The notes: generated from the letters alone by a model not told the origin. Shown: positions 44,516 through 62,986, numbered from the stretch's first letter. The stretch is DNA of 64,000 nt from an uncultured Methanomassiliicoccales archaeon (GCA_963695345.1 OY968769.1:2304001-2368000), one strand, 5' to 3'. Made by a program: numbers and translations.

Positions 44516-45012
44516 TGCTTGACCTCCGGAGACGTGACCGCACCCTCATCCGCATTCTCCCCCGATCCCTGTTCGGGGCTTTGCGCCGCCGCCTTCTCCT
44601 TCCATTTCGATATCGCCAGCACGACGCCGTCGATTATCGCCTCGGGACGGCAGGCGCATCCCGGAACATAGACGTCGACCGGAATGACCCGGTCGATGCC
44701 GCCATCCACGTTGTAGCAATCAAAGAACGGCACCCCGTTCGTGGCGCAGTTGCCGCATGCCACCACCACCTTCGGTCCGGGCGTCTGGTTGTATAGGGTC
44801 ATCAGTCGGTCCTCGGTCTTCTTGGTGACCGGTCCGGTGAGCAGGAGGATGTCCGCGTGCTTGGGGTTGGCCTTGTTGACCATGCCGAACCGTTCCACGT
44901 CGTACTTCGGAGTGAGCAGTGCCCACACCTCCAGGTCGCATCCGTTGCAGCTCCCGGTATCGAAGTGCAGTATCCATGGGCTTCTCATCCGCATTCTGTC
45001 CATCAAGGCCAT
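44512..45012 (-). CDS. echC: Ech hydrogenase small subunit C
   Basis: SPW..GSCNGCDLE, PKHAD, GNCA, VPGCACRP. Confidence 0.92.
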   Translation of the reverse strand: MALMDRMRMRSPWILHFDTGSCNGCDLEVWALLTPKYDVERFGMVNKANPKHADILLLTGPVTKKTEDRLMTLYNQTPGPKVVVACGNCATNGVPFFDCYNVDGGIDRVIPVDVYVPGCACRPEAIIDGVVLAISKWKEKAAAQSPEQGSGENADEGAVTSPEVKQ

Positions 45013-45881
45013 CTGAACACCCCTTTGTCCGCCAGGAACACTATCAGTATGTTGGCCGCCGTCAAGCTAATTCCGAAAGCCAAGGTGAACCGCACCATCC
45101 TGTTCCGGGTAAGCCTGGCGGAGCTGTTGTCGATGATCAGCGCCACCAGGAAGAAAGCCAGTACGATGATCGTTTTCCCGATCACGCTTACGTAGAAGTT
45201 CGGGTCGTGGAAGAACAGCGTCATGATGCCGAACACGATGCCCAGCTCGAACCAGTGGGCGATCTCGGTATACGCCAGGTACCGTCCGGAATACTCCACG
45301 TAGGGTCCGGATATGATCTCGGTATGCGCCACGGCGATATCGTACGGTGATTTCTCCATCTTTATGAGCACGACCGGAAGAAGGGACAGCAGCGCCAGAG
45401 GGAGGACCACGATAAGGTTCTGGGTTACCCCGTTGGAGAGGAAGGTTCCCTGCCGATAGCCGATGGCGAAGATCGCCAGGAACAGGACCGGTTCATACGC
45501 CAGTATCTGCAGCAGTTCCCTTTGCGCCCCGAAGTACGAGAATGGGGAGCGGGCGCTGAAGGCGCCCATCACCAGGGAGAATGAACCCGCTCCGGAAACG
45601 AAGAATACGATCAGGAGGTCACCGCCGGTGATCAATAGGACCAGGGCCGCCACCTGAAGCAGCATCGCCGCCACACCGAACACCGCCTGGCTGTTGTTCA
45701 TCACCCTTCGTTCCTTTCCGAACAGTTTTATCAGGTCATAGAACGGCTGAAGTATCGGGGGGCCGACGCGGTTCTGCATGCGGGCGGTGAGCTTCCGGTC
45801 AATGCCCATCAGCAATCCGACCGCGAAGGGTGAGGCGAAGATCAGCAGAAGCATCACCATCAGGTCCTCCGTCGTGCTCAT
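45003..45881 (-). CDS. echB: Ech hydrogenase membrane subunit B (NuoH-like)
   Basis: Start MSTTEDL overlaps the echA stop; GIDRKLTARMQNRVGPP..QPFYD, SPYD, EYSG. Confidence 0.9.
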   Translation of the reverse strand: MSTTEDLMVMLLLIFASPFAVGLLMGIDRKLTARMQNRVGPPILQPFYDLIKLFGKERRVMNNSQAVFGVAAMLLQVAALVLLITGGDLLIVFFVSGAGSFSLVMGAFSARSPFSYFGAQRELLQILAYEPVLFLAIFAIGYRQGTFLSNGVTQNLIVVLPLALLSLLPVVLIKMEKSPYDIAVAHTEIISGPYVEYSGRYLAYTEIAHWFELGIVFGIMTLFFHDPNFYVSVIGKTIIVLAFFLVALIIDNSSARLTRNRMVRFTLAFGISLTAANILIVFLADKGVFRWP

Positions 45882-47764
45882 TTGAACACCTCCAATGCGA
45901 GCGGCAATGAGATCAGGGCGATGAGCAGAAGGACCGCCGTCACGTTGGTCGCCCGGGTCATGAGCCTCTCCGTCCCCTCGTCCGCGTAGTACAGGCCGCC
46001 CAGCTCGAAGACCGGGTCTTCCCCGCCAGCATAGGCTTGGCTGAGGTCCTTCCGGTCCGGCCTCAGAAGGAATCCCAGGCCCAGGAATATCAGGCCGACC
46101 ACGATGAGCACCAGGACGATGGGGAACGCGCCCAGGCCGGTGGTCAGGGAGATGGTCTCGTCCCCGATCGGTGCAATGTAGTACCTGGTCACGAAGGGGT
46201 CCACCAGGTATTTGGTCACCAGGTTGACGGCGAAGGAGAGGACGATCCCCGCGACAAGCAGCGCCCCCAAGGTGAATAGGTAGAGCACCGGTACCTTCTC
46301 CCTCAGGATGGTCCTCCTTTCCGTCGTCGGCCCGGTGGCGAAGATCCGGCCCAGCCATTTGCCGTAGTAGACGATAGAGGCGGCAAATCCCACCGACAGG
46401 ATGATGCCGATCAACGGGAACGATATGTTCGCCTCAGACACGATCCACTTCCCGGCGAACATACCGAACGGCGGGAGCAGGATCATGAATACCCCGACGA
46501 AAATGGCCATCGAGACGAAAGGCATACGGTCCCGGAGGTTGGCCATGTTCTCGATGTCCTCCGATCCGGTCTCGTCCTTCACCACCCCGACGGCCATGAA
46601 CAGCAGGGCCTTCGATATCGCATGGAACAACAGAATGATGATCGCGGCGGTGATGGACAGGGGAGTGTTCAGCCCGACGCAGACAATGATCAGGCCGAGA
46701 TTCCCGATCGTTGAATAGGCCAGCACCCGCTTGGAATTGCTCTGGGCGATCGCCAGCAGGGATGTGGCCAGGAAAGATGCCGCTCCCACGATCCCGATGA
46801 TCCACAGCAGGAGGTCCTGGCCCAGCAGGTTGGGGGAGAGGCGGAGCAGCAGGTAGACCCCCAGGTTGACCATGGTGGCAGAATGGAGCAGGGCGGACAC
46901 CGGAGTGGGGGCCACCATGGCTCCGAGAAGCCACTTCTGGAACGGAACCTGGGCCGACTTGGTGAACGCGGCCACCGCCATCAAGGCGAACGGCAGGAGC
47001 TGCAGCCCCAGGATGCTGGTACCTGTCGGGAGCGCGGAGATGGTGAGGGTGTTGAAGTAATAGTATATGAGGACGATCGAGGCGAGCAATAGCATACCGC
47101 CTCCCAGGGTGATCTCGGCGGCTATCCGGGCAGACCTCTTGGCCTCAACCGTCTTGGTATGTCCGATGAGCAGGAAGGAGGTCAGCGTGGTGACCTCCCA
47201 GAAGAAGAATAGCCAGAGGAGGTCGTTGCAGAAGACCGCACCGTTCATGGCTCCCACGAAGATGAGCATCGCCGCGAAGAAGCGGGGCTGGTTCCCGTCG
47301 TTCTTCATGTATCGCAGCGCGTAGAGGATAATGGCCGTTCCGACCAGCGAGGTGATGAGCATCATGACGATGCTGAGATAATCGGCGAAGATGGCCGGGT
47401 CCGCCTCCTTGCCCATGATCGCAGATTGAAAGATGGCCATCGGCGCGATCTGCAGGAACGAGAACAGGACTATCCACTTGCTCTTCTCCCTGACCCCTAT
47501 GTAGAGGAAATACGCCATCAGGACAAGGTCGAGGAACAGTATGATCCATTCCATGGGGAAGAGGTCGGCGGCGTTGACCGCCACCGTCTCGATGCCATTG
47601 ACCGCCATATACCCTAAAAGGCCTATCGCCAGCAGGACAGTGATGAACGATGTGACGGCCACTATGACCCAGGGCGAGGTACCTCGCCTCCTGGTCATGC
47701 ATAAGATACCTCCCAGGGTTGGGGCGGCGATCAAAAGGAGGAGATACAAGGTAGTGGCCTGCAT
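45878..47764 (-). CDS. echA: Ech hydrogenase antiporter-like membrane subunit A (NuoL-like)
   Basis: FWEVTTLTSFLLIG, TKSAQVPF..WL..AMVAPTPVSALLHSATMV, KRVLAYST, HAISKALLF. Confidence 0.9.
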   Translation of the reverse strand: MQATTLYLLLLIAAPTLGGILCMTRRRGTSPWVIVAVTSFITVLLAIGLLGYMAVNGIETVAVNAADLFPMEWIILFLDLVLMAYFLYIGVREKSKWIVLFSFLQIAPMAIFQSAIMGKEADPAIFADYLSIVMMLITSLVGTAIILYALRYMKNDGNQPRFFAAMLIFVGAMNGAVFCNDLLWLFFFWEVTTLTSFLLIGHTKTVEAKRSARIAAEITLGGGMLLLASIVLIYYYFNTLTISALPTGTSILGLQLLPFALMAVAAFTKSAQVPFQKWLLGAMVAPTPVSALLHSATMVNLGVYLLLRLSPNLLGQDLLLWIIGIVGAASFLATSLLAIAQSNSKRVLAYSTIGNLGLIIVCVGLNTPLSITAAIIILLFHAISKALLFMAVGVVKDETGSEDIENMANLRDRMPFVSMAIFVGVFMILLPPFGMFAGKWIVSEANISFPLIGIILSVGFAASIVYYGKWLGRIFATGPTTERRTILREKVPVLYLFTLGALLVAGIVLSFAVNLVTKYLVDPFVTRYYIAPIGDETISLTTGLGAFPIVLVLIVVGLIFLGLGFLLRPDRKDLSQAYAGGEDPVFELGGLYYADEGTERLMTRATNVTAVLLLIALISLPLALEVFK

Positions 47765-47911
47765 ATAACCAGGACACCATTCCAATGCCACCCATATTAT
47801 GTTTGCCATGCGGGACATAAAAACCAATTCGAGCTGGCCGAGATCGTCATGACCTGACTTTCGTGGGAAATCTAATTAGTTGATAACGCGTTGGAGGGAT
47901 GGGGTCGTCCA

Positions 47912-48007
47912 TTGGCAGAATGCATCGTGTGTGGTTCGGTCATGAAGAAGAATCAGAAAAAGTGCCCAAACTGTGGTGCATCGCAGGATGAGGATGACGA
48001 TTATTGA
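47912..48007 (+). CDS. 31-aa single zinc-finger microprotein (not in ORF track)
   Basis: TTG GCA GAA TGC...TAT TGA reads MAECIVCGSVMKKNQKKCPNCGASQDEDDDY (CxxCG-x9-CPxCG). Purine-rich GGAGGGATGGGG upstream. Confidence 0.7.
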   Translation: MAECIVCGSVMKKNQKKCPNCGASQDEDDDY

Positions 48008-49097
48008 GCGCGAGCCGGAAGCGCACAGAGCCAGATGGTGGCAGCCGGAAGGCGATGGAATTCTATGTCGGTTATGCCCTCGCAGATGCCGAATACCAGA
48101 TGGGGCGGTCGGATTCTGCAATGCCCGGGCGAATCACTCCGGACAACTGGTGGCCTTGACCTACGGTCGGGTATGCGCCTCAGCGGTCGATCCGGTGGAA
48201 AAGAAACCGGTATTTCACTACCGTCCCGGAGCTAGGCTGTATTCTGTCGGCACGTTCGGATGTAATCTTGACTGCGGTTTCTGTCAGAACGCCGTCATGG
48301 CCCGTTCCCGGTTCGACAACATCCCATCCCAATATATGCCGCCGGAAGAACTGGTCCGCACCGCCCTGGAAAAGAAGGTCGATGGTATCGGGTGGACCTT
48401 CAACGACCCGGTGGTGTGGTCCGAATACGTCATCGACGTCTCCGGTCTCGCTCATTCCCAAGGATTGTTCAATCTGCTGAACACCAATGGATACATCGAA
48501 CCGGAGGCAAGGGACGATCTTCTTGAGAACATAGACGTGGTCAAAGTGGACATCAAAGGATTCACCGAGGCCACCTACAATGATCTTTGCCAGGGTCAAC
48601 TGGCCCCGGTCCTCGACACATGCAGGAGCATTAACGACAAGGGGATACACCTTGAGCTGGCATATCCGGTCATCCCGGGCCTGACCGGCGCCAAGGAGAT
48701 GATGGCCAGATTCGGTGAATGGGTCGTGGAGGAACTGGGAAATGAAACACCGATACACCTTTTCCGTTTCCAGCCGGCCTATCGATTGTCGAACCTGGAT
48801 AGTCCTGACATCACGTATCTGCAAGAGGTCCGCGAGCTGCTGCTGAAATTGGGTTTGAGATTCGTGTACCTGGGAGGCGTGACCGGTGTGGGGCAGGATA
48901 CCATTTGTCCGAAATGCGGGACGGTCGTGATCTACCGGGCATCGGAGGAAGCTAGCGAGAAAATATTCGTCAAGAAAGAGCAGGTAAGTCGCTTCTGCCC
49001 GACGTTCGCGAAAGTCCGAAATCTGATGGTCAACGGATGTTGTCCGCGATGCGGTGAGTCATTACCGATTCAAGAAAAAGACGTATCTGGCTCGTGA
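47994..49097 (+). CDS. AmmeMemoRadiSam-type radical SAM enzyme (PflX-like)
   Basis: CRLCPRRC..GFC, DPVEKKPVFHY, CNLDCGFCQN, HLFRFQP, CPKC, CPRC. Start could be 47973, 47988 or 47994. Confidence 0.88.
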   Translation: MTIIEREPEAHRARWWQPEGDGILCRLCPRRCRIPDGAVGFCNARANHSGQLVALTYGRVCASAVDPVEKKPVFHYRPGARLYSVGTFGCNLDCGFCQNAVMARSRFDNIPSQYMPPEELVRTALEKKVDGIGWTFNDPVVWSEYVIDVSGLAHSQGLFNLLNTNGYIEPEARDDLLENIDVVKVDIKGFTEATYNDLCQGQLAPVLDTCRSINDKGIHLELAYPVIPGLTGAKEMMARFGEWVVEELGNETPIHLFRFQPAYRLSNLDSPDITYLQEVRELLLKLGLRFVYLGGVTGVGQDTICPKCGTVVIYRASEEASEKIFVKKEQVSRFCPTFAKVRNLMVNGCCPRCGESLPIQEKDVSGS

Positions 49098-49120
49098 AAA
49101 CAATTTTCAGGAACAAATTT

Positions 49121-49153
49121 TGGATGGTACATCCATCATAAAAGGATTTAATA
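49121..49153 (+). promoter_or_regulatory. Candidate operator TGGATGG-TACAT-CCATC plus TATA box (TTTAATA) of the corrinoid gene
   Basis: Palindrome at 49121-49137 lies 9 nt upstream of TTTAATA at 49147. The same motif precedes mcrB. Confidence 0.55.
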
Positions 49154-49208
49154 CAATCCTTTAGCATCCGAGGATTAGATTTCTTATTCCATTTGGGAGG
49201 ATAGGCGC

Positions 49209-49847
49209 ATGAGTGAGACTCTACAGAATCTGATTGATATTGTAATCAAGGGAAAGATCAAAGAGGCCAAGCCATTGGCCGAGAAGGCCCTCGCCGAAGG
49301 AATAACCGCGAAGGTAATCATCTTTGAAGGACTCAACAAGGCCATGGAGATCGTGGGACAGAAATACGAGAAGAAGGAGTATTTCCTGCCCCAGGTCCTG
49401 CTTTCCGCCCAGACTCTCTACCAGGCCCTCGATGTGGCCCTGCCAAGGCTCGATAAGGCCTCCATCGGAGCGCAAGGGAAGATCGTCATCGCGGTCGTGG
49501 AAGGGGACGTTCATGACATCGGCAAGAACATCGTAAAGGCGATGCTGACCGGTTCCGGCCTCACCATTCTGGACCTGGGCAGGGACATCCCGGTCAAGAA
49601 CATCGTCGATAAGGCAAAGGCGGAGAACGCGAGCATCATCGCCACCTCCACCCTCATGACGCCCACCCTGGCCGGAATGAAGGACCTCGAGAGAATGGCC
49701 AAGGAAGGCAACCTGAAACCGAAGATCAAGACCATTGTCGGCGGCGGCGCGACCTCCAAGGAATTTGCCAACCAGATCGGGGCCGACGGTTGGGCATATG
49801 ACGCGAACGAGGCAGTCAAGGTTATCACGGAACTGTTGAAGCGTTGA
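49209..49847 (+). CDS. Methyltransferase cognate corrinoid protein (MtaC/MtbC/MttC family)
   Basis: Cap domain (YFLPQVL), EGDVHDIGKNIV (DxHxxG), DLGRD, STLMT, VGGG, IGAD. GGAGG RBS. Confidence 0.95.
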   Translation: MSETLQNLIDIVIKGKIKEAKPLAEKALAEGITAKVIIFEGLNKAMEIVGQKYEKKEYFLPQVLLSAQTLYQALDVALPRLDKASIGAQGKIVIAVVEGDVHDIGKNIVKAMLTGSGLTILDLGRDIPVKNIVDKAKAENASIIATSTLMTPTLAGMKDLERMAKEGNLKPKIKTIVGGGATSKEFANQIGADGWAYDANEAVKVITELLKR

Positions 49848-49887
49848 GGCGTAACAATTCCTAACCTTTTTCCTGTTTCCGAGACCC

Positions 49888-50619
49888 TCACGGGATACGG
49901 AACGGTCGTTTTGAACCATCGAAACCGCCGCTCCACATGCGGTGGTTCACCAATCCTCCCGCCAAAGCCGCCAACCCGACCATCACGTTCTGATCGCCGG
50001 AGGTACTGCCGTAGAGTGGATTGCCCAACGAGAGAGCGCCGAACACTATCGCAACCACGCCCATCGCCGCAAGCAGAAGTGCCAGGTTTCTAACCACCCG
50101 AGGGGCGAACCTTTCGGTCGGTTCCTTCAGCCTTGCGGTCCTGTCCCTGAACGTGAACAATAGCATGGAGACGGCGGAAACTCCAAAGACCCACTCGTAC
50201 GCGTTTCCGATCTCTTTGGAAAGCGAATCGGCCACATAATTCGGGAAGTGATGCTGGCCGAAATCACCGAGCAGGGGATAGAATACGGTCACCGGCATCT
50301 CCCACATGGAATCGAGTATCAAATGGGAAAGGAGTCCGGCTACCAGCGCCATCATTATCCAGGAACCTTTCTTCCTGTGGTAGGCGAGACCGATTACCAG
50401 GATCGCCATGAAGAAGAGGCCGCTGTGGGCATAGATGCGGCCAAAATCGATCGAACCGTTCAGGAGGATATGCCCCAGTGGCTTGTCGATAAGGTCAGGC
50501 AATATGCTGCCGATCGCCGCCAGGAGGATGACCTTCCGGTCCTGCAGAAACTGGAAGATCACCAGCCCGATCACGAGGCCTATGAAGAGGTGGCACATCA
50601 GCAGCATGTTCAACGCCAA
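49888..50619 (-). CDS. YdjM-like membrane-bound metal-dependent hydrolase
   Basis: CH, GSILPDLIDK, GRIYAHS, SHLILD, YPL motifs. Confidence 0.85.
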   Translation of the reverse strand: MALNMLLMCHLFIGLVIGLVIFQFLQDRKVILLAAIGSILPDLIDKPLGHILLNGSIDFGRIYAHSGLFFMAILVIGLAYHRKKGSWIMMALVAGLLSHLILDSMWEMPVTVFYPLLGDFGQHHFPNYVADSLSKEIGNAYEWVFGVSAVSMLLFTFRDRTARLKEPTERFAPRVVRNLALLLAAMGVVAIVFGALSLGNPLYGSTSGDQNVMVGLAALAGGLVNHRMWSGGFDGSKRPFRIP

Positions 50620-50781
50620 TCCTTGGAGAGCTATAAAAGGGGAACCGAGTAACTAACCAAGGGTAGGATAATGACCACATCCAAATTCGATTTTGAGGGA
50701 ATTGGATGGAATCTTTAATATCGGTATTGGTAATTCAATAGGATAGAGCCTGTCCCGACCGGGACGTGTTTCGAGCGGGCC

Positions 50782-52161
50782 ATGGTGGGGCTGAGAACTA
50801 TTAGAACCGGGAAACGAGTCGTTGGTATTCTCCTTGGCATGATGGTATTCATCGAGGGGATTTTCGCCATTTACATGGCCAAACCCACTTGGATTACTGG
50901 ATATGGGGGAATCACCCAATCGGCCTTGGTCCTGGCAGGGGCCCAACTTGCCATTATCGGAGCCTTGACGATTCTGGTCTGGGCCATCTACAAGGACAAG
51001 AAAATGGAAGGAACGATGGGGAAAGTGATTCCCCTCGTGATGCTGTCCGCCTCATTATTATTGATCATCGAAGGCATAATGGTAACATTCCTTTCCAACG
51101 ACATATTGATCGGCGCCACCCGCGGCGTTTCAAAGAAATACGTGGCCCTGATCGGCGTACAATTGTTCGTCATCGGGATGACCCAGCTGAGCCTTTGGAT
51201 CCGCCGCGAAAAGGAGCAAACCAACTGGCTGTTCGGCTGGGCGGCACTTTTCTTCTCCATCGTCCTGGTGGCCGAAGGACTATTCACTGCCTGCATTTCT
51301 GGGGACATCATCATCGCCGGCGTCGGCACGATCCCAAAGGGAACCGTGTTCCTATTGGGCCTTCAATTGTGCCTTCTGTCCGGGGTGTTGTACTTCATAC
51401 AGTTGTTCAAGGATGACGGCTTCCTTACTGGCCGACTGAGCAGGAAATGGATGAACCATATCATCGCCATCCTTGTGCTGGTCATCGCTCTTGAGAGCGT
51501 GGTCCTGGCCTATTTCACTGAGCCGATGGTCCTGGCATATTCAGATTCACAGGTGGAAGGGTTCGGAAAGCTATTCCTCAGCCCCATCGCCGCACAGCTG
51601 CTCGCGATCAGCCTGTTGGTGCTTTCCTCCTGGAAGTTGGCAGAGGCAAAGCTGGACCGGAAGTCATTGGTCGAGTTCTTGGGCATGGGCGCGGGAATCG
51701 CCCTCGCCGCCGAAGGCGCATTTGTGTTAGCGATCTCCGGCCGCATGCGGGTCCTGAACGAGATCGGTGGGATAAGGACAGGCACCGTCATGGCCGCCGG
51801 CCTGGTGCTGTTGCTGATCGGCATGGTGGTCCTTTTCTGCTGGCATTTCCGGAACGAAGGAATAGTGAAGAGGTTCGCAGGAAAAGGAAGACTGGACCTT
51901 TTCATGATGGTCATGGGTCTGATAACCGGCATCGCAGGAGTGGCGCTGTCGGCACTATCTGCCCGGGTGGTCATCGATGAAGTAGGCAGCATAGCCGCGA
52001 GATACATCGAACTCGCCGGTATCCAGCTTATTATTTTGGCATCGGTGATGGTTCTGATGTGGGTAATGCGGGTGGACGGGGTTACCTACAGGATGAAGCG
52101 CCTGTCCCTCATGACCGCGCTCTTCCTGATGCTCCTCATCCCGCCGGCCATCCTAATGTAG
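50782..52161 (+). CDS. Polytopic membrane protein with six internal TM-loop-TM repeats, function unknown
   Basis: Repeated EG..(beta segment)..G.I....G.QL unit, six times. Confidence 0.8.
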   Translation: MVGLRTIRTGKRVVGILLGMMVFIEGIFAIYMAKPTWITGYGGITQSALVLAGAQLAIIGALTILVWAIYKDKKMEGTMGKVIPLVMLSASLLLIIEGIMVTFLSNDILIGATRGVSKKYVALIGVQLFVIGMTQLSLWIRREKEQTNWLFGWAALFFSIVLVAEGLFTACISGDIIIAGVGTIPKGTVFLLGLQLCLLSGVLYFIQLFKDDGFLTGRLSRKWMNHIIAILVLVIALESVVLAYFTEPMVLAYSDSQVEGFGKLFLSPIAAQLLAISLLVLSSWKLAEAKLDRKSLVEFLGMGAGIALAAEGAFVLAISGRMRVLNEIGGIRTGTVMAAGLVLLLIGMVVLFCWHFRNEGIVKRFAGKGRLDLFMMVMGLITGIAGVALSALSARVVIDEVGSIAARYIELAGIQLIILASVMVLMWVMRVDGVTYRMKRLSLMTALFLMLLIPPAILM

Positions 52162-52233
52162 GCTCTATAGAGGGCTCAGAAACTATATTGACCCTCTATT
52201 CCCTTTTCCCTCATTCTACGGAGTGTATTATCC

Positions 52234-54189
52234 ATGGCACCGGAGGACAAGAGGATCTTAGGACTTGGGATCGACACGGGTGGAACATTCACCGATGCGG
52301 CAATTATCGACATGAAGACCATGGAGGTACTGACCAAGGCGAAATCTCCGACCACCTATCAGGACCTGTCCATAGGTCTTCTGGGCGCGGTCGATGGGGT
52401 AATCGCCTCGGGCCTGTTCGACGTGGACGAGATCAAGATCGTGGGACTTTCCACCACTCTTGCCACCAACTCGATCCTGACCGGCAAGGGCGGTCAGGTA
52501 GGCCTCATCTGCATCGGCTGGTCCCCTGACCGGGATTGGGACATGGGGACCAAGATAATCGAGACCGTGGAGGGCGGTCACACCGTAAGGGGCTATGAGA
52601 ACCAGCCACTGGATGTCGCGGCCCTCGAGAGGGCGATATCCTCGATGGCCTCAAAGGTCGACGCCATAGCCATCTCCAGCATCTTCAGCGTATACAACCC
52701 GGACCACGAGGTGCGCGCCCGCAAGGCCATCCTGGAGAGGGCGAACATGCTCACCGTCACCGGTCATGACCTGACCACCCAGCTGGGCATAAAAGAAAGG
52801 ACCATCACCGCCGTGCTGAACGCCAAGCTGATACCGATCATCGGGGACTTCCTGAACAGCGTGGAACATTCGATGGAGAAGAGGGGGATCAAGGGCCAGA
52901 TCATGGTGTATAAGGGTGACGGGTCGCTGATGAACATAGCAGTGGCCAGGACCAGGCCGGTGGACACCATCCTTTCCGGACCCGCCGCCAGCCTTATGGG
53001 GGGCAGGTTGCTGTCCAAACTGGAGAACTGCATTGTCCTGGACATCGGCGGAACGTCCACCGACATCGCTTATCTGGACAAGGGATTCCCGCGCATCAAC
53101 CGGGAAGGCGCCTCGGTCGGGAACTGGAGGACCCGGGTCAGGGCCATCGATATCTGGACCAGCGGACTCGGAGGGGACTCCGACATGCAGGTGGACCGCT
53201 ATGGACACCTGGAGATAGGGCCGGAAAGGGTCATGCCGCTGGCCTTGGCCTCGAAGAAGGACCCGGCGATCCTGGACAAACTGCGCCTGACCAGGCAGAC
53301 CACCTATTATATGGTGTACGACAGGGACACCGCCAAACTGAGCCACGAGGACCGTCTGGTGTACAACTTCCTCAAGGAGAACAAGGTGAGCACGTTCAAT
53401 GAGGCCAACGAGGGTGTTCCGGAGCTCTATTTCGTGACCGAGAACCTGCGCTCCCTCAAGGCCAAGGGATTCATTCTGCAGACCGGTCTGACCCCCACCG
53501 ACATCATGCACGTCAAAGGGATCTATACGCCCGGGGACGTCCTGGCATCAAGGGAGGGAGTGGAGATATTCTCCAATCTGGCGTGCGTGACCGTGGACCA
53601 TTTCATCGAGAACTTCATGGACGTGATGGTCACCAATATCGGCGGCGAAGTGGTAAAGAAGATCATATCGGACGAGGCCGGGGACATTATTCCGTCCCGC
53701 GCTTTGGACTATCTCATCAAGGCCATTCTGGGGGCCGCCGGATTCCGGACCATGTCCATCCAAGCCTCCCTCGACCGGCCGATAGTGGGGATCGGGGCGC
53801 CGGCACACGTGTTCGTCCCGGAACTGGAGAAGAGGATGAACGTCAAGGTCATCATCCCTCCGAACCATGACGTCGGGAATGCCGTCGGCGCGGTGTGCAG
53901 CAAGGTGTCGGAGATGATATCGGTGCAGGTCTACCCCCGAGACTACAAGTTCTGGGTGTTCACGCCTTTCGCCGACCCGCTGGAGTTCCACCACCGCGAG
54001 GAGGCCATCGAGAAGGCCAAGGAGGTCGCCTGCGATTACGTCAAAGAAAGGGCGCTGGCCGCCGGTGCCAAGAACGTCGAGGTCATGGTCGACGTGGACG
54101 AGAAGCGTTTCGCGCCAGGCTCGACCACGACCACTCCCACCTCCAACTGGACCGAGGTTAGGGCCAGAGCGACAGGAGACCCAATTTAG
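52234..54189 (+). CDS. Hydantoinase/oxoprolinase A-subunit-like ASKHA ATPase
   Basis: GIDTGGTFTD, STTLATN, ERTITAVLNA, SGPAAS, DIGGTSTD, GLGGDS, TPTD, NAVGA. Confidence 0.9.
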   Translation: MAPEDKRILGLGIDTGGTFTDAAIIDMKTMEVLTKAKSPTTYQDLSIGLLGAVDGVIASGLFDVDEIKIVGLSTTLATNSILTGKGGQVGLICIGWSPDRDWDMGTKIIETVEGGHTVRGYENQPLDVAALERAISSMASKVDAIAISSIFSVYNPDHEVRARKAILERANMLTVTGHDLTTQLGIKERTITAVLNAKLIPIIGDFLNSVEHSMEKRGIKGQIMVYKGDGSLMNIAVARTRPVDTILSGPAASLMGGRLLSKLENCIVLDIGGTSTDIAYLDKGFPRINREGASVGNWRTRVRAIDIWTSGLGGDSDMQVDRYGHLEIGPERVMPLALASKKDPAILDKLRLTRQTTYYMVYDRDTAKLSHEDRLVYNFLKENKVSTFNEANEGVPELYFVTENLRSLKAKGFILQTGLTPTDIMHVKGIYTPGDVLASREGVEIFSNLACVTVDHFIENFMDVMVTNIGGEVVKKIISDEAGDIIPSRALDYLIKAILGAAGFRTMSIQASLDRPIVGIGAPAHVFVPELEKRMNVKVIIPPNHDVGNAVGAVCSKVSEMISVQVYPRDYKFWVFTPFADPLEFHHREEAIEKAKEVACDYVKERALAAGAKNVEVMVDVDEKRFAPGSTTTTPTSNWTEVRARATGDPI

Positions 54190-54267
54190 GCCGGAGAAAC
54201 ATTGAAGTAATATAATCAAGATAATGCGGCTGAATATCTTATTTAAGATGTTATTGGAGGGAATTTA

Positions 54268-55278
54268 GTGGCTAGCAAAATGACTCCGAGGGAGCGCGTT
54301 CTCGCCGCTCTTGATTTGAAGGAAGTTGACAGGCCTCCAGTTGTATGCTTCACACAGAGCGCAACTGTTGATGTGATGGACGCGGTCAAGGTATATTGGC
54401 CCGAAGCCCACACCGACGCACACAAGATGGCTGAGTTGGCCATGGGTGTCCCGACGGTATTGGGTCTTGAGTCCGTCAGGATGCCGTACTGCCTGACCGT
54501 CGAGGCTGAGATCATGGGTTGCGTCGTAAACCTGGGTGGCCAGGACAGGACCCCAATGGTCAAGAAGCACGCGTTCGATGAGGACTCCGAGGTAGTAATC
54601 CCGGATGACATAACCTCAAAGGGCAGAATGAAGACCGTCATCGAGGCTGTAAAGATCGCCAAGGCAAAGGTCGGAAATGAATACCCGATCGTTGTCGGAA
54701 CCACCGGCCCAGTCACCATCGCGGGACACCTGGTCGGAACCGAGAACCTGCTCCTGTGGATGATCGTCAACCCGAGCGCCGTCCAGAAGTTCGTGGACAT
54801 AGCGACCAAGATCGAGAAGGAATACTGTACCGCACTGGCAGCCGCCGGCGCAGATGTCATCGTCATGAGCGACCCATCGTCCTCGACCGACATGATGTCC
54901 GCCGAACTGTTCGACCAGTACAGCAAGCCGTCGATCCGCGAGTGCTTCACCGACGTCGGTGAGACCAAGACCGTCCTGCACATCTGTGGCAACACCACCG
55001 TCCTGCTGGACCACATGATCGACACTGGCGTCAACGGCCTGTCGATCGAGGAGAAGGTCGAGCCGGAAGAGGCTGTCAGGCTGGTAGGCGGAAGGGCCGC
55101 TCTCGTCGGAAACGTCGGAGTGGTCAGGCCGTTGCTGCAGGGCACCCCTGAGGAATGCTACGAGGCAGGCAAGAGATGCAAGGAAGCCGGCTTCAACCTC
55201 GTCGCACCGGGATGCGGACTCGCGGCACGTGTGCCTCTGGCCAACATCCAGGCATTGGTCAAGGCAGTCAAGGAGTGA
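54268..55278 (+). CDS. Methylcobamide:CoM methyltransferase (MT2, MtaA/MtbA family)
   Basis: UroD fold: PYCLTVEAE, GPVTIAGHLVG, zinc ligands HICG and APGCG. GTG start after GGAGG. Confidence 0.93.
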   Translation: MASKMTPRERVLAALDLKEVDRPPVVCFTQSATVDVMDAVKVYWPEAHTDAHKMAELAMGVPTVLGLESVRMPYCLTVEAEIMGCVVNLGGQDRTPMVKKHAFDEDSEVVIPDDITSKGRMKTVIEAVKIAKAKVGNEYPIVVGTTGPVTIAGHLVGTENLLLWMIVNPSAVQKFVDIATKIEKEYCTALAAAGADVIVMSDPSSSTDMMSAELFDQYSKPSIRECFTDVGETKTVLHICGNTTVLLDHMIDTGVNGLSIEEKVEPEEAVRLVGGRAALVGNVGVVRPLLQGTPEECYEAGKRCKEAGFNLVAPGCGLAARVPLANIQALVKAVKE

Positions 55279-55288
55279 ACTTCTTAAG

Positions 55289-55319
55289 GGGGAGAGATCC
55301 CCCTATCAACGATTTTTTT
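55289..55319 (+). terminator. Terminator-like hairpin plus T-tract
   Basis: GGGGA-GAGA-TCCCC followed by TTTTTTT, right after the MT2 stop. Confidence 0.6.
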
Positions 55320-55756
55320 CTACATTTCAGTCCCGGATTATGAATATCGGATTTTTCAGTAGCCCAGCTACATAGCGATGCTCGGTGCCTTGAGGATCAC
55401 CTGTTTCTGCTGAGCCATTCGTAACCTGGGCGAAACGAAACCAGTCATGCTGTCATCGAGGAGGGCCGATAGGCCATTGGGTCCAGGGACTGGAATCACC
55501 CCGGGCCCCATTGATTCAACGATCGATGCTGCCCCGAGATAACAGAACTTACCACCGCCGTCCGGTCCACCGTACGAAGTCATAGGTCGTTCAGAACGGT
55601 TGATCTCAGTCCTCTACCAAGCCGACGCGGCAGGCTTCATGAAACAACCTTGGACCCTTCCATGTGGACGTTATTGGATCCATCCAGTCTTTCAGTGATG
55701 TGTACAGTTTTAAGAAAGCTGATATATAGACAGTATGCAATCTTCGAACGATTTTC

Positions 55757-57406
55757 ATGGCATACGGTGTTGCTCTAGACCTGGGAACCAGTGGATATCG
55801 TTCTCATCTGGTTGACCTTTCTAACAAAGGTAAGATAGTGTCGACCTCAATCACAATGAGACATCCGTTGCCGGGCGCGAACATCATGGACCATCTCCAT
55901 TTTTGGATGGAGAACGGGAGCGAGGTCGGACACAGCATTATAACGGAGACAGTGGACCACCTGATCGAATTGCATGGTGCCAAACCAGATGAGATAGAGA
56001 GGATCGCGGTCTGCGGCAATCCGGCCCAGCTCTCCATGTTCGAGAACATCGAGATCCGCGACCTGGCCTATGCTGGGCAATCGCTCCTCAGTCGGCTCAA
56101 CATCAAGGTTCCGGAACGGCGGGCACACGTGATCAAGGCCGATGAGCTGGGCCTCAGATCGGTCAATAAGGCCGCCGACATCCGTATCCCGCCATCCATC
56201 CGCCATGAGATCGGCGCTGATGCGCTGGCCATGATCATCAAGACCAAGCTCCTGGATAAAGATGAGACCTGCATGGTCACCGACTACGGCACGAACGCCG
56301 AGATGGGTCTTTACCATGAAGGGGAGCTCTACACCGGATCCGCCGCCGCCGGACCGGCAATGGAAGGGCAGTCGATCAAGTTCGGAATGCTGGCAGCCCC
56401 GGAGGCCATCTCTGATCTGGCGATAGGGCCGGATGAGATGTGGTACAATTACGTCCTCGACAAACACCTCCATCCGTGCAAGGCGGCGATGGTCGGGCCC
56501 CGGAACAACAAGGTCCAGGTCATCGAGAACCTGACCGCCCGGGGCATCACCGGAACCGGAGTGGTGGCCGCCGTGGCGATGGGCCTGGAGACCGGGATCA
56601 TCAAATTGCCCGGTATCGACACGCCAGACCACATGATACACTTGATGAACGGGATCACCTTCACCGAGCATGACCTGAAGGAAGCGGGAAAGGCCATGGG
56701 CGCCATCCGGGCGGGTCACCGGACGCTCATCCAGAATGTCGGAATAGACGATGCCGAGGTCAAGACCATGTACCTGGCCGGAGCGTCCGGAACATACGTG
56801 GATCCGATAAAGGCACAAAGGGTGGGCCTCTTGCCCCGGGTACTGGAGAGAACGGTCCAGGCAGGCAACACGTCGCTCATGATGGCCTATGATATCCTGG
56901 TGGACGACAACGGCCTGGACCACATGCAGGATGTGGCCAACTCGATCGCCTCCAAGCACATCATGTTCGCCACCAGCGAGGTCTTCGAGGATCACTACGT
57001 CAACGAACTGGCCTACTGGGATGAGGGTATGCCCTTCGACATGGTCAACACCATGCTGAAGAAGGCCGGATACCGGCCCATGCCCGAGATCGTACGCCCG
57101 AAGGAGATGATACGATTGGTAAGCAGCGACATCCCGGTCATCGGGGACCGAGGGCTTAAGACACTGGAGGATGTCGGGGTGTACCTCATCGGTTCCTTCG
57201 AGGGCTGCATTGGCTGCCAGAAATGCGAGCTGGAGTGTCCGGAGCGGGCCTTGAAGATCCTGCCGATGGGAGATGACAAGTTCAAGGTCAGGATAGCAAC
57301 CGAGTTCTGCCTTGGGACGGCGTGCAAGCATTGTGAAAATGTATGTCCCAAGAAGGTCTATAATCTCAGCAAGCTCGCGGTGGTAAGAAGAGGAGATGAC
57401 CAGTAA
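55757..57406 (+). CDS. ramA: Corrinoid protein reductive activase RamA
   Basis: ALDLGTSG, HPLPGANIMDH, IGADA, TDYGTNAE, AGPAMEG, and C-terminal CIGCQKCELECP / CLGTACKHCENVCP. Confidence 0.93.
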   Translation: MAYGVALDLGTSGYRSHLVDLSNKGKIVSTSITMRHPLPGANIMDHLHFWMENGSEVGHSIITETVDHLIELHGAKPDEIERIAVCGNPAQLSMFENIEIRDLAYAGQSLLSRLNIKVPERRAHVIKADELGLRSVNKAADIRIPPSIRHEIGADALAMIIKTKLLDKDETCMVTDYGTNAEMGLYHEGELYTGSAAAGPAMEGQSIKFGMLAAPEAISDLAIGPDEMWYNYVLDKHLHPCKAAMVGPRNNKVQVIENLTARGITGTGVVAAVAMGLETGIIKLPGIDTPDHMIHLMNGITFTEHDLKEAGKAMGAIRAGHRTLIQNVGIDDAEVKTMYLAGASGTYVDPIKAQRVGLLPRVLERTVQAGNTSLMMAYDILVDDNGLDHMQDVANSIASKHIMFATSEVFEDHYVNELAYWDEGMPFDMVNTMLKKAGYRPMPEIVRPKEMIRLVSSDIPVIGDRGLKTLEDVGVYLIGSFEGCIGCQKCELECPERALKILPMGDDKFKVRIATEFCLGTACKHCENVCPKKVYNLSKLAVVRRGDDQ

Positions 57407-58270
57407 GTGCGCATAATATCTGTCGTTGACAACATGTCGGGCACGTCCTTCAACTACTCCAAGTTGGTCAAGCGCCTGGACAGGCCGGACCGGCACTTCC
57501 TTTCGGAGCATGGGCTGTCAATACTGATCGAGACCGATGACGGCAAGAGGGTACTGGTGGACACCGGTGCCTCAAACATGGTTTTCTCCCATAATCTCAA
57601 TCTGCTGGGATTCAAACCGAACGACATCGATGCGGTCTTCATATCCCATGGCCACTATGATCATATGGGCGGCCTCATACCGATGATCGACGCCGGAAAA
57701 CCCATCTACGGCGACCCGAAACTGTTCTCCTCGAAGCGCTTCGCCGTCGCCATTGATGGCACCAAGAGGGACATCAGCGCCCCGAGGGAGCTAATCGACG
57801 CCCTGCCCCGGGCCAATCTCCACCTTTCCTCTTCCAGCGTGGAGATAGTACCAGGCGTGAAGACATCCGGGCAGATCGTCCGGGAGTCGAAGTTCGAGGT
57901 CCAGGACCGGTTCCTCAAGGAGGAGGAGATCGGTTGTCCGGTCAATGACGAGGTCTTCGAGGAGCAGGCGCTCTTCATCCAGACCAAGAAGGGCCTGGTG
58001 ATCGTGTCGGGATGCGGTCACCCCGGCATCGTGAACGTGGTCACCCAGGCGAAGAGAAGCTTCGACAAGAGGATATACATGGTCATCGGCGGGTTCCATC
58101 TCAGCTCAGCCAGCAAGGACCGGATCCTGAAGACCATGGACGGACTCAAGGCACTGGGCGTTGACCGAATAGCTCCCACCCACTGCACCGGTTTCGAGGC
58201 ATTGAAGATGATGTCCGACCGATTCGTCGGGTTCGATATGCTTCCCTCCGGCAGCGAGATCACGATCTGA
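57407..58270 (+). CDS. MBL-fold metallohydrolase (COG1237-like)
   Basis: EHGLS, DTG, SHGHYDHMGG, GCGHPG, GGFHL, HCTG. The GTG start directly follows the ramA TAA. Confidence 0.9.
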   Translation: MRIISVVDNMSGTSFNYSKLVKRLDRPDRHFLSEHGLSILIETDDGKRVLVDTGASNMVFSHNLNLLGFKPNDIDAVFISHGHYDHMGGLIPMIDAGKPIYGDPKLFSSKRFAVAIDGTKRDISAPRELIDALPRANLHLSSSSVEIVPGVKTSGQIVRESKFEVQDRFLKEEEIGCPVNDEVFEEQALFIQTKKGLVIVSGCGHPGIVNVVTQAKRSFDKRIYMVIGGFHLSSASKDRILKTMDGLKALGVDRIAPTHCTGFEALKMMSDRFVGFDMLPSGSEITI

Positions 58271-58330
58271 GATCGTCAGGATCGCCGGAACGAGCTTTTT
58301 TATCCTCGTTCCGACAACGTTCTTTACGAC

Positions 58331-58876
58331 ATGTTTGTGGAGAGGCCGGACGATTGGCAATGGCAGGAACTGGTCACCACCTATGGACATCCAACGTTCG
58401 CCGATCAGGAACGGAGGATCCATGGAAGTGCCGAGGACAAGGACGCCATGACGCGCCGAGGGGACGTGATCCTGCTCATTTTCAATCTTGGCGGTTCGTG
58501 TGTCTTTGTCAAAAGGAAAGGAGCGATGGACTGGTCCTTTCCGACAGGCCCGATCGGGCCGGGGGAAGGGATCATCGAGGCAGCACATCGAGAGGCGATG
58601 GAACAGGCCGGGGTCACGATAGTTCCGATCGGGGTTCCGCTCTGCCAAAGGGTGAATGCGACATCCAGGGACACGACCTCCCAGAGATGGCGTTTGGTGG
58701 TGGTGGCGGAGACCGCCACGTCCGACCTGCGTCCGGAGGATCAAGGAGGTGTCGAAGCCAGGCTTTTCGACATTCCTCCGACCGTGCATGATCATGACAA
58801 AGCGGCATGGATGGCAGAATTGCACGGTGTCGCCACCCGCTTCATGCGGTCGATGGACGCCATGGACGGGATATGA
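58331..58876 (+). CDS. NUDIX-like protein (variant box)
   Basis: PTGPIGPGEGIIEAAHREAMEQAGV matches Gx5Ex7REUxEExGU, with EE changed to EQ. Confidence 0.75.
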   Translation: MFVERPDDWQWQELVTTYGHPTFADQERRIHGSAEDKDAMTRRGDVILLIFNLGGSCVFVKRKGAMDWSFPTGPIGPGEGIIEAAHREAMEQAGVTIVPIGVPLCQRVNATSRDTTSQRWRLVVVAETATSDLRPEDQGGVEARLFDIPPTVHDHDKAAWMAELHGVATRFMRSMDAMDGI

Positions 58877-60856: not shown

Positions 60857-62075
60857 ATGAGCCGCAAGGCGAAGGTGGCCGCGCCCGGCCCGGAAGGCTA
60901 TCGCACCGAGGACCCGGAGGAGACCCTGTCCCGCATAGAACCCCTCACCAAGAAGGCAGGGATAAGCCGTGTCGCCGACATCACCGGGCTGGACCGTATC
61001 GGTATTCCGGTTTTCTCCACCATCCGTCCGTCCGCCGAGACTGGTGCCATATCCATCTACAACGGAAAGGGCCTGACCCCGGCCCAGGCCAGGATATCGG
61101 CGATAATGGAAGGCATCGAAAGATACAGCGCGGAAGTGCACGGCGACGTCCTGGTCAGGGAACTCATGGAGGATATGCTGAGCGGTGGGAACGCTCTCGA
61201 TCCGCGCGAGCTTATCCTTCCCATCTACACCAAAATGAGGCTGAAGGACATGCCTGTCGCCTGGGTGAAGGGAAGGGAGATCGGGAGCGAAAAGGAGATC
61301 ATGGTTCCGGCCAGCGCCGTCTATCATCCCTATGGCTCAGCGGCGGACCTGCCCTTGTTCCGTTCCAACACCAACGGGCTCGCCTCCGGCAATACCCTGA
61401 ATGAGGCGATATTGCACGGACTCTGCGAGGTCATCGAGAGGGACGCTTGGTCCCTGACGGAGGTAAAGAGGAAGGTCATCTCGGATATATCAATAGATGA
61501 AGAGGGCGGACTGCTGAGGGAGACCCTGGACCGGTTCACCTCCAAGGGGGTGGAGGTGCATCTCAAGAACCTCACCAGCGACATTGGCATGCCGGTCATC
61601 GCAGCGGCGGCGGACGACGTGCAGCTGCAGGATGCGGGTCTGCTGACCCTTGGCATAGGGGCGCACCCGTCCCCCAAGGTGGCGGCCCTGAAGGCTTTGA
61701 CGGAGGTGGCCCAGAGCAGGCTAACCCAGATACACGGGGCGAGGGAGGATGCGGTCATGGCGGACGGCAACCGGAAGCTTGGCTATGACCGTGTGAAGCG
61801 GATGAACCAGCTATGGTTCGGGAAGGCCGCCGCGATCAGGAACATAGAGGATATGGAAGTCTATCGACAAAGGGGACATCGAGGCCAATATTGCAGAGGT
61901 GGTTGACCGTGTCCACGCAGTGGGATTAAGGTCGGCCATCGTCACCGATCTGACCAGAAAGGAGATCGGCATACCGGTCGTTAGGGTGCTTGTCCCGGGT
62001 CTCGAGGTGTTCTCCATCGATTCTGACCGGGTGGGAAGAAGGTTGATGGAAGCGGAAAGGAGCCTTCGCGGATGA
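60857..62075 (+). CDS. ycaO: YcaO (McrA glycine thioamidation protein), interrupted by a +1 frameshift near 61862
   Basis: ITGLDRIGIPV, GKG, MEGIER, SNTNGLASG, EVIERD, LTEVAQSR. The expected C-terminus DLTRKEIGIPVVRVLVPGLE lies in another frame, whose TGA (62075) overlaps the tfuA ATG. Confidence 0.92.
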
Positions 62076-62749
62076 AACCGGTCATCTTCCTGGGAATGAG
62101 CCTGCCTCTGGACGAGGCCAGAAAGATCCTTGACGCCGACTACCGTCCGCCCATCAGAAGAGGTGACCTGCCCCGGCTGGACGAAAGGACCCGGTGGGTC
62201 GGGATCATAGATGGGGTTTTCATGAACGACTGTTCGGTAGGTCACCGAGAGATCATTGCCCTGCTGAAGAGAGGGGTGACGGTGGTCGGAGGAGGCAGCA
62301 TGGGCGCGCTGAGGGCGTCCGAGCTGGGAGACCTCGGGATGATCGGGGTCGGCAGGGTCTATGAGATGTATCTCAATGGCGAGATCGAGGGCGATGATGA
62401 AGTGGCGATCATATTCAATCCGGAGACGAACGATCCCCTGTCAGAACCGCTCGTGAATATCCGCGCGACGCTGGCACTCGCCGTGGAAAGAGGGGTGCTG
62501 GAGGCGGACGCATCGAACCAGATTCTGGAAAAGGTCCGGGCGGAATACTTCCCTAGGCGTTCAATCCCGAGAACGGTCGAGCTAGCAAGGGAAATCTTGG
62601 ACCATCGAACGTTCAAGGATTTTACTGAATTCGTAAACATTTCAACGGTAGACCTCAAAAGAAGGGATGCTATCGCCGTATTGCAGAAAATCGAGAAAAT
62701 CCGAAAAAACGCAATCCTCGAAAAATCCGAAAAAACGAAAATTTCGTAA
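62072..62749 (+). CDS. tfuA: TfuA (McrA thioamidation partner)
   Basis: PPIRRGDL, IIDGVF, HREI, SMGALRASEL, DDEVA, SEPLVNIR, DLKRRDA. Confidence 0.95.
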   Translation: MKPVIFLGMSLPLDEARKILDADYRPPIRRGDLPRLDERTRWVGIIDGVFMNDCSVGHREIIALLKRGVTVVGGGSMGALRASELGDLGMIGVGRVYEMYLNGEIEGDDEVAIIFNPETNDPLSEPLVNIRATLALAVERGVLEADASNQILEKVRAEYFPRRSIPRTVELAREILDHRTFKDFTEFVNISTVDLKRRDAIAVLQKIEKIRKNAILEKSEKTKIS

Positions 62750-62787
62750 AAATCGAAACCTCCGTCAACACCTTAAAAACCAAAAAA

Positions 62788-62888: not shown

Positions 62889-62986
62889 CATATTTGCTGA
62901 TACTATACCCTCGCAAGGGGAGCCGATTTTCACTAGATTGATGCAAATCTCTTGTGAAAATTGAGTTATTAAAAAGGAGGTAAAAC

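Follow-up and report, generated by a model that had tools for sequence, protein, structure and literature searches.

What does a hydantoinase A-like (HyuA-like) ATPase do in a gene cluster for corrinoid-dependent methyl transfer that holds no substrate-specific methyltransferase (MT1)? The question is posed by a 64-kb stretch of DNA, called the window in what follows, which sits at 2304-2368 kb of the 2.56-Mb, one-contig genome of a Methanomassiliicoccales-type methanogen (marker-based completeness estimate 85%); the closest relatives of the window genes are titled Methanomassiliicoccales. As a preliminary description of this DNA had stated, and as open reading frames (ORFs), Pfam and NCBIfam agree, genes for a corrinoid protein, a six-repeat membrane protein, the HyuA-like ATPase, a methylcobamide:coenzyme M methyltransferase (MT2) and the corrinoid activase RamA all lie here on the plus strand (Table 1), with a spacer of exactly the claimed 78 nt between the HyuA-like and MT2 genes. 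The answer favored here, to which a probability of roughly 55% may be given, is that the cluster represents a conserved module in which genes for an MtaA/MtbA-type MT2 and for RamA accompany those for an orphan corrinoid protein and a HyuA-like ATPase that stands alone, with the HyuA-like protein serving as an ATP-dependent accessory factor that, judging from its sequence and company, most likely loads, repairs or activates corrinoid proteins. It is the combination of its recurring partners (corrinoid proteins, often encoded immediately upstream, UroD-family methyltransferases, RamA/RACo, CobW-type GTPases, DUF1638 and cobalt or cobamide genes) with a preserved nucleotide site and the lack of HyuB that suggests an ATP-dependent helper of corrinoid proteins or of their cofactor.

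The HyuA-like protein has both domains of its family (PF05378, E 7.9e-30; PF01968, E 1.6e-38), and its phosphate motifs DxGG..TD (residues 14-21) and DxGGT.TD (residues 270-277), together with further glycine-rich motifs, are invariant in 47 members. An AlphaFold2 model (predicted local distance difference test score, pLDDT, 86.7; predicted template modeling score, pTM, 0.82) resembles HyuA-type subunits along its full length in Foldseek, with template modeling (TM) scores of 0.59-0.64 at 15-19% identity (9h03_A, 5m45_B, 5svc_B, 5l9w_B/b, 6yra_A). By sequence, canonical HyuA chains of the PDB match residues 114-332 only (E 4e-33 to 5e-8), and the best score against the named HyuA equivalogs (caprolactamase alpha, acetophenone carboxylase subunits) is 128.8 bits at a cut-off of 1000. 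The domains and ASKHA motifs of the HyuA family are present and the HyuB partner is missing: PF02538 has no match in the one-contig, 85%-complete source genome, in agreement with the lack of a B subunit noted earlier for the cluster, while the same search is positive in 6 of 14 named genomes used as a control, and no HyuB was seen beside relatives in the Pfam scans run on their neighborhoods. Clustering at 50% gives 1124 representative clusters that match at E<=1e-30. Of these, the top 150 are nearly full-length matches of 32-50% identity, one 86% fragment excepted, and the members with a name are from Methanomassiliicoccales, candidate division MSBL1, Bacillota and Armatimonadota. These sequence relationships assign the protein to a distinct, widespread HyuB-less HyuA subfamily, and both sequence and model indicate that this is a diverged, probably nucleotide-binding branch of the HyuA family.

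Conservation of the gene neighborhood was followed in 80 loci (L-numbered loci are stretches carrying relatives), chosen as the best matches from species-representative genomes and all titled Methanomassiliicoccales or unclassified archaeal metagenome-assembled genomes. A corrinoid gene was counted on the same strand within 3.5 kb upstream, an MT2 gene (at least 45% identity) within 6 kb downstream and RamA within 9 kb, assignments that depend on the tblastn thresholds and on a simple ORF picker. On these terms the HyuA-like gene is accompanied by the corrinoid gene in 47/80 loci, by MT2 in 50/80, by RamA in 41/80 and by all three in 38/80; among the 43 loci with full flanks, all three are present in 28 and at least one in 33. 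In Methanomethylophilaceae the order corrinoid-HyuA-MT2-RamA is kept, tightly packed and co-oriented, at a HyuA identity of only 39-42%, with the corrinoid protein remaining 60-67% identical. The grouping is far beyond chance, since it is conserved across the order. The neighborhood analysis that the preliminary description had proposed for this clade has hence yielded a conserved linkage to corrinoid, MT2 and RamA genes and no HyuB, which bears out its suggestion that the lone A-type ATPase is a component not described before.

The linkage is not confined to one paralogue. In a quick, midpoint-rooted FastTree phylogeny of 81 sequences, built without bootstrap, paralogue groups lacking the linkage fall inside the linked group, among them a source-genome paralogue of 65% identity beside a Na/H exchanger and histidine kinases, a pattern that points to loss of the linkage after duplication. 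A second deep paralogue clade holds the 40% paralogue of the source genome, and most of 15 sampled regions, which represent 16 of the 21 listed places in other same-order genomes and were evenly drawn, carry this clade. Eight of the 15 have a corrinoid and UroD-family gene pair beside the HyuA-like gene, two a UroD-family gene only, two directly adjacent cobamide-biosynthesis genes (CbiJ/TP_methylase plus CbiA-like in one, CobN in the other) and three nothing related. Region L183 has the order corrinoid-UroD-CobW/MeaB-like GTPase-x-x-HyuA-DUF1638-Fur-CbiM/CbiQ, and L048 the order corrinoid-UroD-x-UroD-corrinoid-..-CobW-x-x-HyuA-HyuA, with a tandem HyuA-like pair. In the source genome itself two of the three HyuA-like paralogues lie by a RamA gene, namely the window copy and that of a RamA-SBF-HyuA(40%) group by pylC, at G000:C1:506725-511300 (L091:2716-7396; G-numbers denote genomes of the phylum sample, G000 the source), next to PylC-like and methylamine genes. 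As a separate observation on the second clade, a HAD-family hydrolase gene adjoins its HyuA-like gene in 5 of the 15 regions (L182, L185, L192, L193, L195); two of these regions also have, slightly further off, genes for an SMR transporter and a UroD-family protein.

The same company is seen at the level of whole genomes. In an evenly drawn sample of 151 genomes of the phylum, true RamA (over the cut-off) occurs in exactly 17 same-order genomes, source included, and strong full-length HyuA-like matches occur in 16 of these 17 and in none of the other 134, ten of which show only weak core matches. In the exception, G126 (99% complete, 20 contigs), the two RamA genes adjoin MtmB and MtaB, and the orthologous corrinoid protein, the MT2 and a third RamA were likewise not found, so that no part of the module came to light there; the nearest corrinoid match reaches just 42% identity, and a 45% MT2 directly follows it.

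A further tie to B12 comes from domain fusions. Among the top 150 relatives, nine proteins measure 833-959 aa, and all of these are N-terminal DUF1638-HyuA fusions, a kind of protein to which a language-model search had pointed as well; the window protein is homologous to their HyuA part only (34-38% identity over its full length) and has no DUF1638 domain by Pfam. In Phaeobacter inhibens DUF1638 is cofit with a RamA-like protein and with the pieces of a split methionine synthase (MetH), and a role in B12 reactivation has been proposed for it, with no mechanism given in the passages concerned (Price et al. 2018, PMC5764234); in Ruegeria pomeroyi growth on N-osmolytes, glycine betaine among them, was reported to raise its abundance along with that of RamA (PMC12478193). 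The source genome has five DUF1638 genes, none of them next to a HyuA-like gene, one lying between two corrinoid genes of the methylamine cluster (L093:1282-2028; G000:C1:485083-488571). Alignments of DUF1638 show three invariant cysteines and an invariant His and Asp, a pattern with which it might bind metal. Its AlphaFold2 model (pLDDT 91.7) has a two-lobed alpha/beta fold with no Foldseek match at E<=0.001; in VIA-align the matches are middling and tied (Z 8-9.6), to the PrpR/NtrC sensor, Asp/Glu/hydantoin racemase-like and LacI/periplasmic-binding domains. With these fusions, and with CobW, cobamide-biosynthesis and RamA genes as neighbors, the loading or repair factor named among the options of the preliminary description is the one that fits best.

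Some of these data would also accommodate a cobamide-metabolism enzyme acting on the free cofactor, in an ATP-dependent salvage, remodeling or lower-ligand step. The CbiJ/CbiA, CobN, CbiMQ, CobW, TP_methylase and CobT/CobS neighbors (L183, L184, L195, L196; L139) point that way, as do the small-molecule kinase chemistry generally known from the family and the ligand-binding or racemase-like nature of the best, if middling, DUF1638 matches. The commonest immediate neighbor, however, is a corrinoid protein gene and not a biosynthesis gene, and the Phaeobacter DUF1638 gene was judged unlikely to belong to biosynthesis, whose genes are essential while DUF1638 is not (as argued in part of PMC5764234), which makes action on free cobamide decidedly improbable.

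The second peculiarity of the cluster is what it lacks. A complete methylotrophic module consists of MT1, corrinoid protein, MT2 and RamA, of which only the MT1 gene is missing here: Pfam detects no MT1-type domain in 47973-58270, with or without TAG read-through, and reading TAG as a residue gives no new long ORF in 49000-58400, in agreement with both absences noted earlier. The MtaB (2), MttB (TAG), MtmB (2, TAG) and MtbB (TAG) genes of the genome lie at ~282 kb, 1849 kb and 486-500 kb, far from the window. The match to MtbB (PF09505) is itself fragmented, with profile positions 1-396 and one TAG followed by 392-463 in an adjacent overlapping frame (G000:C1:492592-493981), one in-frame TGA, and a further C-terminal piece 4 kb off (498197-498628); it is perhaps a gene for dimethylamine methyltransferase that is split or frameshifted.

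In 19 related loci, tblastn with the L004 gene finds a minus-strand gene for a divergent UroD-family methyltransferase (44-100% identity) exactly in the interval between MT2 and RamA. The enzyme is 24-27% identical to MT2 and falls under all NCBIfam cut-offs; the gene is absent from the window interval, from L029 and from Methanomethylophilaceae, its best match in the source genome being one of 36% at 117385-118374. A remnant in the window interval was considered and rejected, the sole match being 22 residues inside the end of the MT2 gene, with the gap itself empty. UroD-family enzymes are able to serve as MT1 in some systems, and for that reason the divergent enzyme may fill the role of MT1 in those 19 relatives, which may hold a complete module that the source genome has trimmed.

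It is against this background that the placing of the ATPase "in place of" MT1 by the preliminary description has to be judged. In such a scheme ATP would activate an inert methyl donor, or the methyl group would be handed to the orphan corrinoid protein, after which MT2 would methylate coenzyme M. Canonical HyuA enzymes phosphorylate small substrates, a chemistry that would suit this role. The cluster has no MT1, its corrinoid protein cannot be placed in any named equivalog, genes for transporters (SBF, the six-repeat protein) adjoin HyuA-like genes, and G126, in which methanol and methylamine systems are present while the module was not found, is in keeping with a separate substrate-specific system. 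Orphan "mtxC" corrinoid proteins for an "uncertain methyl-compound" have moreover been listed in the order (PMC4153887, Table S10). The scheme is nevertheless unlikely, because clusters of relatives already have an MT1: four bacterial loci contain an MttB-type MT1, two with unfused relatives of the type MttB-corrinoid-HyuA (L174) and MttB-MttB-corrinoid-HyuA (L175), and two with fusions (L160, fusion-MttB-corrinoid; L114, fusion/RACo/MttB), and in the 19 loci the divergent UroD-family enzyme is a candidate for one. The bacterial DUF1638 fusions, mostly away from methyltransferase genes, and the cobamide-biosynthesis and CobW neighbors also speak against it. To our knowledge, finally, all MT1 enzymes are TIM barrels, whereas the HyuA-like protein has the ASKHA fold. 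The claim that the ATPase stands in for MT1 is thus not supported.

Two related proposals dispense with MT1 altogether. In the first, the cluster would work like the MtsA/MtsB pair, one methyltransferase carrying out both half-reactions, with the HyuA-like protein as an activator of its own, specific to MT1-less corrinoid/UroD pairs. Both paralogue clades do occur by corrinoid and UroD pairs that have no TIM-barrel MT1 of the Mta/Mtm/Mtb/Mtt kind, and the MtaBC and Mtm/Mtb/Mtt clusters of the source genome have RamA and no adjacent HyuA-like gene, the lone exception being the RamA-SBF-HyuA group ~9 kb past the methylamine genes. MtsAB homologues have also been reported in the order, and M. alvi was described as not using dimethylsulfide (PMC10673518). 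The bacterial MttB-corrinoid-HyuA clusters, by contrast, have a separate MT1, the window cluster already carries RamA, its MT2 scores as an ordinary MtaA/MtbA type, and the M. luminyensis gene of this kind is labeled "mtbA" in a figure legend (PMC5688252; a likeness by label only), all of which leaves such a pair doubtful. In the second proposal the HyuA-like protein, the orphan corrinoid protein and the UroD-family methyltransferase would together form an ATP-driven, MT1-less methyl transfer system in which ATP activates an unreactive donor or the encounter of corrinoid protein and substrate. This is speculative and rather improbable; were it true, methanogens and anaerobic bacteria would obtain methyl groups from compounds of a class so far unrecognized as substrates.

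For the HyuA-like protein as an accessory factor of corrinoid proteins, the following course of events can be envisaged. The protein would bind and hydrolyze ATP at its intact ASKHA site and spend the energy on the corrinoid protein, its presumed client, or on the cobamide of the latter. The step so driven would be loading, exchange or repair of the cofactor, or help with reductive reactivation; RamA would act beside the HyuA-like protein, as would DUF1638 and CobW-type GTPases where these occur. A co-prediction of the HyuA-like and corrinoid proteins scored 0.00 in two runs made without controls, a figure that speaks neither for nor against this course. The biochemically defined "methyltransferase activation protein" (MAP) of Methanosarcina barkeri, which autophosphorylates with ATP (PMC5007285) and appears as a gene label in a figure legend (PMC3814188), was considered as the equivalent of the HyuA-like/DUF1638 pair and dropped, as nothing links MAP to the family.

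Several observations weigh against this role. No cysteine is invariant among the 47 HyuA-like sequences, and the protein therefore cannot itself carry an Fe-S center or be the electron carrier. An SBF transporter gene recurs by HyuA-like genes, both at the source paralogue and in L016, L018, L019, L024 and L027, where it lies between the HyuA-like and MT2 genes, and would also suit a small-molecule substrate. No corrinoid neighbors accompany the 65% paralogue or the genes in L009-L014, L044-L052, L190, L191 and L194. Most fusion genes, in the 80 metagenome loci gathered with a fusion as the query, stand among unrelated genes, a B12 or one-carbon neighbor being found by Pfam in only 3 of 14 fully flanked fusion loci (MttB in L104, CobT/CobS in L139, Pterin_bind in L167); L112 has the order RACo-x-x-fusion, and among the eight unfused relatives one further locus, beside the two with MttB given above, is of the HyuA-UroD type (L172). 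Because the top-80 loci were selected for similarity and come from close kin, their counts overstate independence, and all RamA-positive genomes of the phylum sample belong to one order, so that the pattern offers no independent support. Taken to the extreme, the several paralogue clades and the many fusion loci that lack a corrinoid context would fit a coincidental neighborhood of a metabolic HyuA relative unrelated to corrinoids. Against mere coincidence, which is very improbable, stand the occurrence of the linkage in bacteria as well as in two archaeal families, its presence in two deep paralogue clades and a domain fusion to a B12-linked family.

The partners in the window are themselves only partly assignable to named types. 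Families were assigned by Pfam and NCBIfam scores, and the types of the corrinoid protein and MT2 are those given by hidden Markov model scores alone. The corrinoid protein stays under every equivalog cut-off (MtgC, 170 bits against 310; MtbC, 157 against 350; MtaC, 125 against 450) and under that of TIGR02370 (182 bits against 215), and its nearest paralogue in the source genome is 42% identical. Among 25 syntenic orthologues, with a mean column identity of 76%, GDVHDIG is kept in 24; the orthologue at L035:9250-9888 reads GDVNDIG, with Asn replacing the cobalt-ligating His of DxHxxG, explained either by an error of sequencing or by a His-off variant. MT2 exceeds the cut-offs of the MtaA/CmuA subfamily models (besides PRK06252, TIGR01463 with 326.9 bits against 235.4) and stays below the equivalogs MtaA_Meth (368.3 bits against 400) and MtbA (260.2 against 600). 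RamA has the RACo_C_ter, Raco_middle and Fer4/Fer4_7 domains, with a C-terminal 2x[4Fe-4S] domain; the genome has two further full RamA genes, one adjoining MtaB and the other the methylamine/pyl cluster.

Table 1. Features of the cluster with its flanks in the window, and examples of the divergent UroD-family gene in related loci
Feature	Position	Strand	Basis or remark
AmmeMemoRadiSam-type radical S-adenosylmethionine (SAM) enzyme	47973..49097	+	TIGR04337 280.8 bits, cut-off 220
Orphan corrinoid protein, 212 aa	49209..49847	+	Pfam B12-binding and B12-binding_2; DxHxxG His-on motif
YdjM-like membrane protein	49888..50619	-	PF04307 E 2.3e-15
Membrane protein, 459 aa, six ~75-aa two-helix repeats	50782..52161	+	hhalign
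HyuA-like ASKHA ATPase (P0002), 651 aa	52234..54189	+	Hydant_A_N and Hydantoinase_A
MT2, methylcobamide:coenzyme M methyltransferase, MtaA/MtbA type	54268..55278	+	URO-D; PRK06252 369.5 bits, cut-off 244
Non-coding gap, 478 nt	55279..55756		between MT2 and RamA
RamA, ATP-dependent reductive corrinoid activase	55757..57406	+	TIGR04270 706.3 bits, cut-off 500
MBL-fold hydrolase	57407..58270	+	Lactamase_B E 1.4e-13
Divergent UroD-family gene	L004:13148-14155	-	
Divergent UroD-family gene	L015:13324-14337	-	
Divergent UroD-family gene	L041:13264-14277	-	

The remaining genes of the cluster and its flanks (radical SAM enzyme, YdjM, six-repeat protein and MBL hydrolase) are lineage-specific company of the module in the top-80 set. 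The genes named in the earlier gene list were correct, although the list had missed the minus-strand YdjM gene and the gap between MT2 and RamA. The YdjM gene, which splits the corrinoid gene from the rest of the cluster, is found only in the closest loci (L004-L008 and L029) and is a lineage-specific insertion. The six-repeat membrane protein is likewise a lineage-specific addition, with a gene in L004-L006, L015-L021 and L024-L029 and none in the Methanomethylophilaceae loci; it has only 19 homologues at E<=0.001 and no Pfam or NCBIfam match. Its six repeats are upheld by hhalign, run on the alignment, with probabilities of 93.6-99.1 in 15/15 repeat pairs, unlike plain blastp of the protein against itself, which found none. 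By tblastn, many Methanomassiliicoccaceae loci have the radical SAM gene directly before the corrinoid gene, while none of the Methanomethylophilaceae loci does; it is probably a flanking gene and not a member of the module; the MBL hydrolase gene, which starts on the base after the RamA stop codon, also follows RamA in many Methanomassiliicoccaceae loci. Elsewhere in the window, overlapping long frames at 45003-47827 on the minus strand, whose listed ORF starts overlap, have Proton_antipo_M/N and NADHdh domains and probably encode Fpo-like complex subunits. At 60857-64000, YcaO (60857-61906) and TfuA (62072-62749) lie directly upstream of McrB (62987 to the window end), a pairing that serves thioglycine formation in methyl-coenzyme M reductase.

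As for earlier reports, a HyuA-type gene has been described in strain DCMF within a nine-gene cluster that is induced by glycine betaine and has MT1, the description of the cluster proposing no function for the gene and naming syntenic regions in Sporomusa ovata and Ca. Frackibacter (PMC9768040). Searches of the literature on hydantoinase or oxoprolinase with corrinoid returned only this paper for such a gene in a corrinoid cluster, and full-text searches returned none that joins Methanomassiliicoccales or Methanomassiliicoccus with hydantoinase or oxoprolinase. Borrel et al. 2014 listed the orphan corrinoid proteins mtxC1-3, assigned to the "uncertain methyl-compound", along with mta/mtbA in three Methanomassiliicoccales genomes, the accession numbers of mtxC1 and mta/mtbA1 differing by two in one species (PMC4153887, Table S10), and the "mtbA" label comes from a legend of Kröninger et al. 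2017; the mtxC, mta/mtbA and M. luminyensis mtbA genes are likened to the window genes by label only. The word "hydantoinase" does not occur in the Borrel supplements, and the searched text of both papers makes no mention of an intervening gene. In an evolution experiment with Methanosarcina acetivorans, which yielded loci tied by its authors to the regulation of methylotrophic methanogenesis, one of four populations acquired a 1-bp frameshift in the putative hydantoinase/oxoprolinase MA4396, according to the part of the preprint concerned (bioRxiv 10.1101/2025.05.05.652248). The HyuA-like protein would thus be a conserved component without prior description, of a kind with the ASKHA-type helpers that B12 enzymes are known to have.

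Methylotrophic methanogenesis is driven by corrinoid methyltransferase systems, which in gut bacteria remove precursors of trimethylamine. At present RamA/RACo are the only factors invoked to explain how these systems are maintained, and DUF1638 stands beside them without an explanation. If the HyuA-like protein is indeed an accessory factor, a second widespread class of ATPases would be a missing part for reconstitution, would give DUF1638 a partner and could account for the inactivity of some corrinoid proteins after heterologous expression. Methanomassiliicoccales are methane producers of the gut and rumen, in which the conserved module centers on an orphan corrinoid protein.

Among known systems, the HyuA-like protein resembles in its setting RamA and RACo, which are likewise ASKHA-fold ATPases encoded in corrinoid methyltransferase clusters and use ATP to maintain an active cobamide; a true RamA lies two genes downstream of it. 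RamA and RACo, however, have Fe-S domains and the RACo_C_ter ASKHA domain, whereas the HyuA-like protein has Hydant_A_N and Hydantoinase_A and no invariant cysteine, and RACo ranks only 40th in the Foldseek search with its model (TM 0.21). With the canonical A subunits of hydantoinase, oxoprolinase, acetone and acetophenone carboxylase and caprolactamase it shares the Pfam domains and the overall fold, but identity in the structural alignments is 15-19%, and the window ATPase has no HyuB in its genome and a corrinoid context instead. GlmL/MutL, EutA and DdrA/GdrA are ASKHA-type accessory proteins or reactivases of adenosylcobalamin enzymes, similar in being actin-fold ATPases encoded between or beside B12-binding subunits and different in serving radical adenosylcobalamin enzymes. 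The HyuA-like protein shows weak N-terminal matches to this group (PF13941, E 4e-8, residues 12-57 only and so not full-length; NF040745, 24.5 bits against a cut-off of 475) that fall outside GlmL/MutL membership. MtsA/MtsB resembles the window cluster in pairing a corrinoid protein with one UroD-family methyltransferase and no separate MT1, but the window MT2 scores as MtaA/MtbA type, and we know of no ATPase in the described MtsAB system. The B12 reactivation set of DUF1638 and a RamA-like protein (PMC5764234) is, like the proposed role, an accessory set for corrinoid-dependent methyl transfer, and DUF1638 is fused to relatives of the window ATPase and directly follows one in L183; the window protein, in contrast, has no DUF1638 domain, and the passages of that paper on the set mention no HyuA-like partner. 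The DCMF cluster (PMC9768040), finally, differs in having three MttB-type MT1 genes and in using tetrahydrofolate, yet its "HydA", likened here by annotation, is also an N-methylhydantoinase A/oxoprolinase-type gene that lies inside a corrinoid methyltransferase cluster and is induced together with it.

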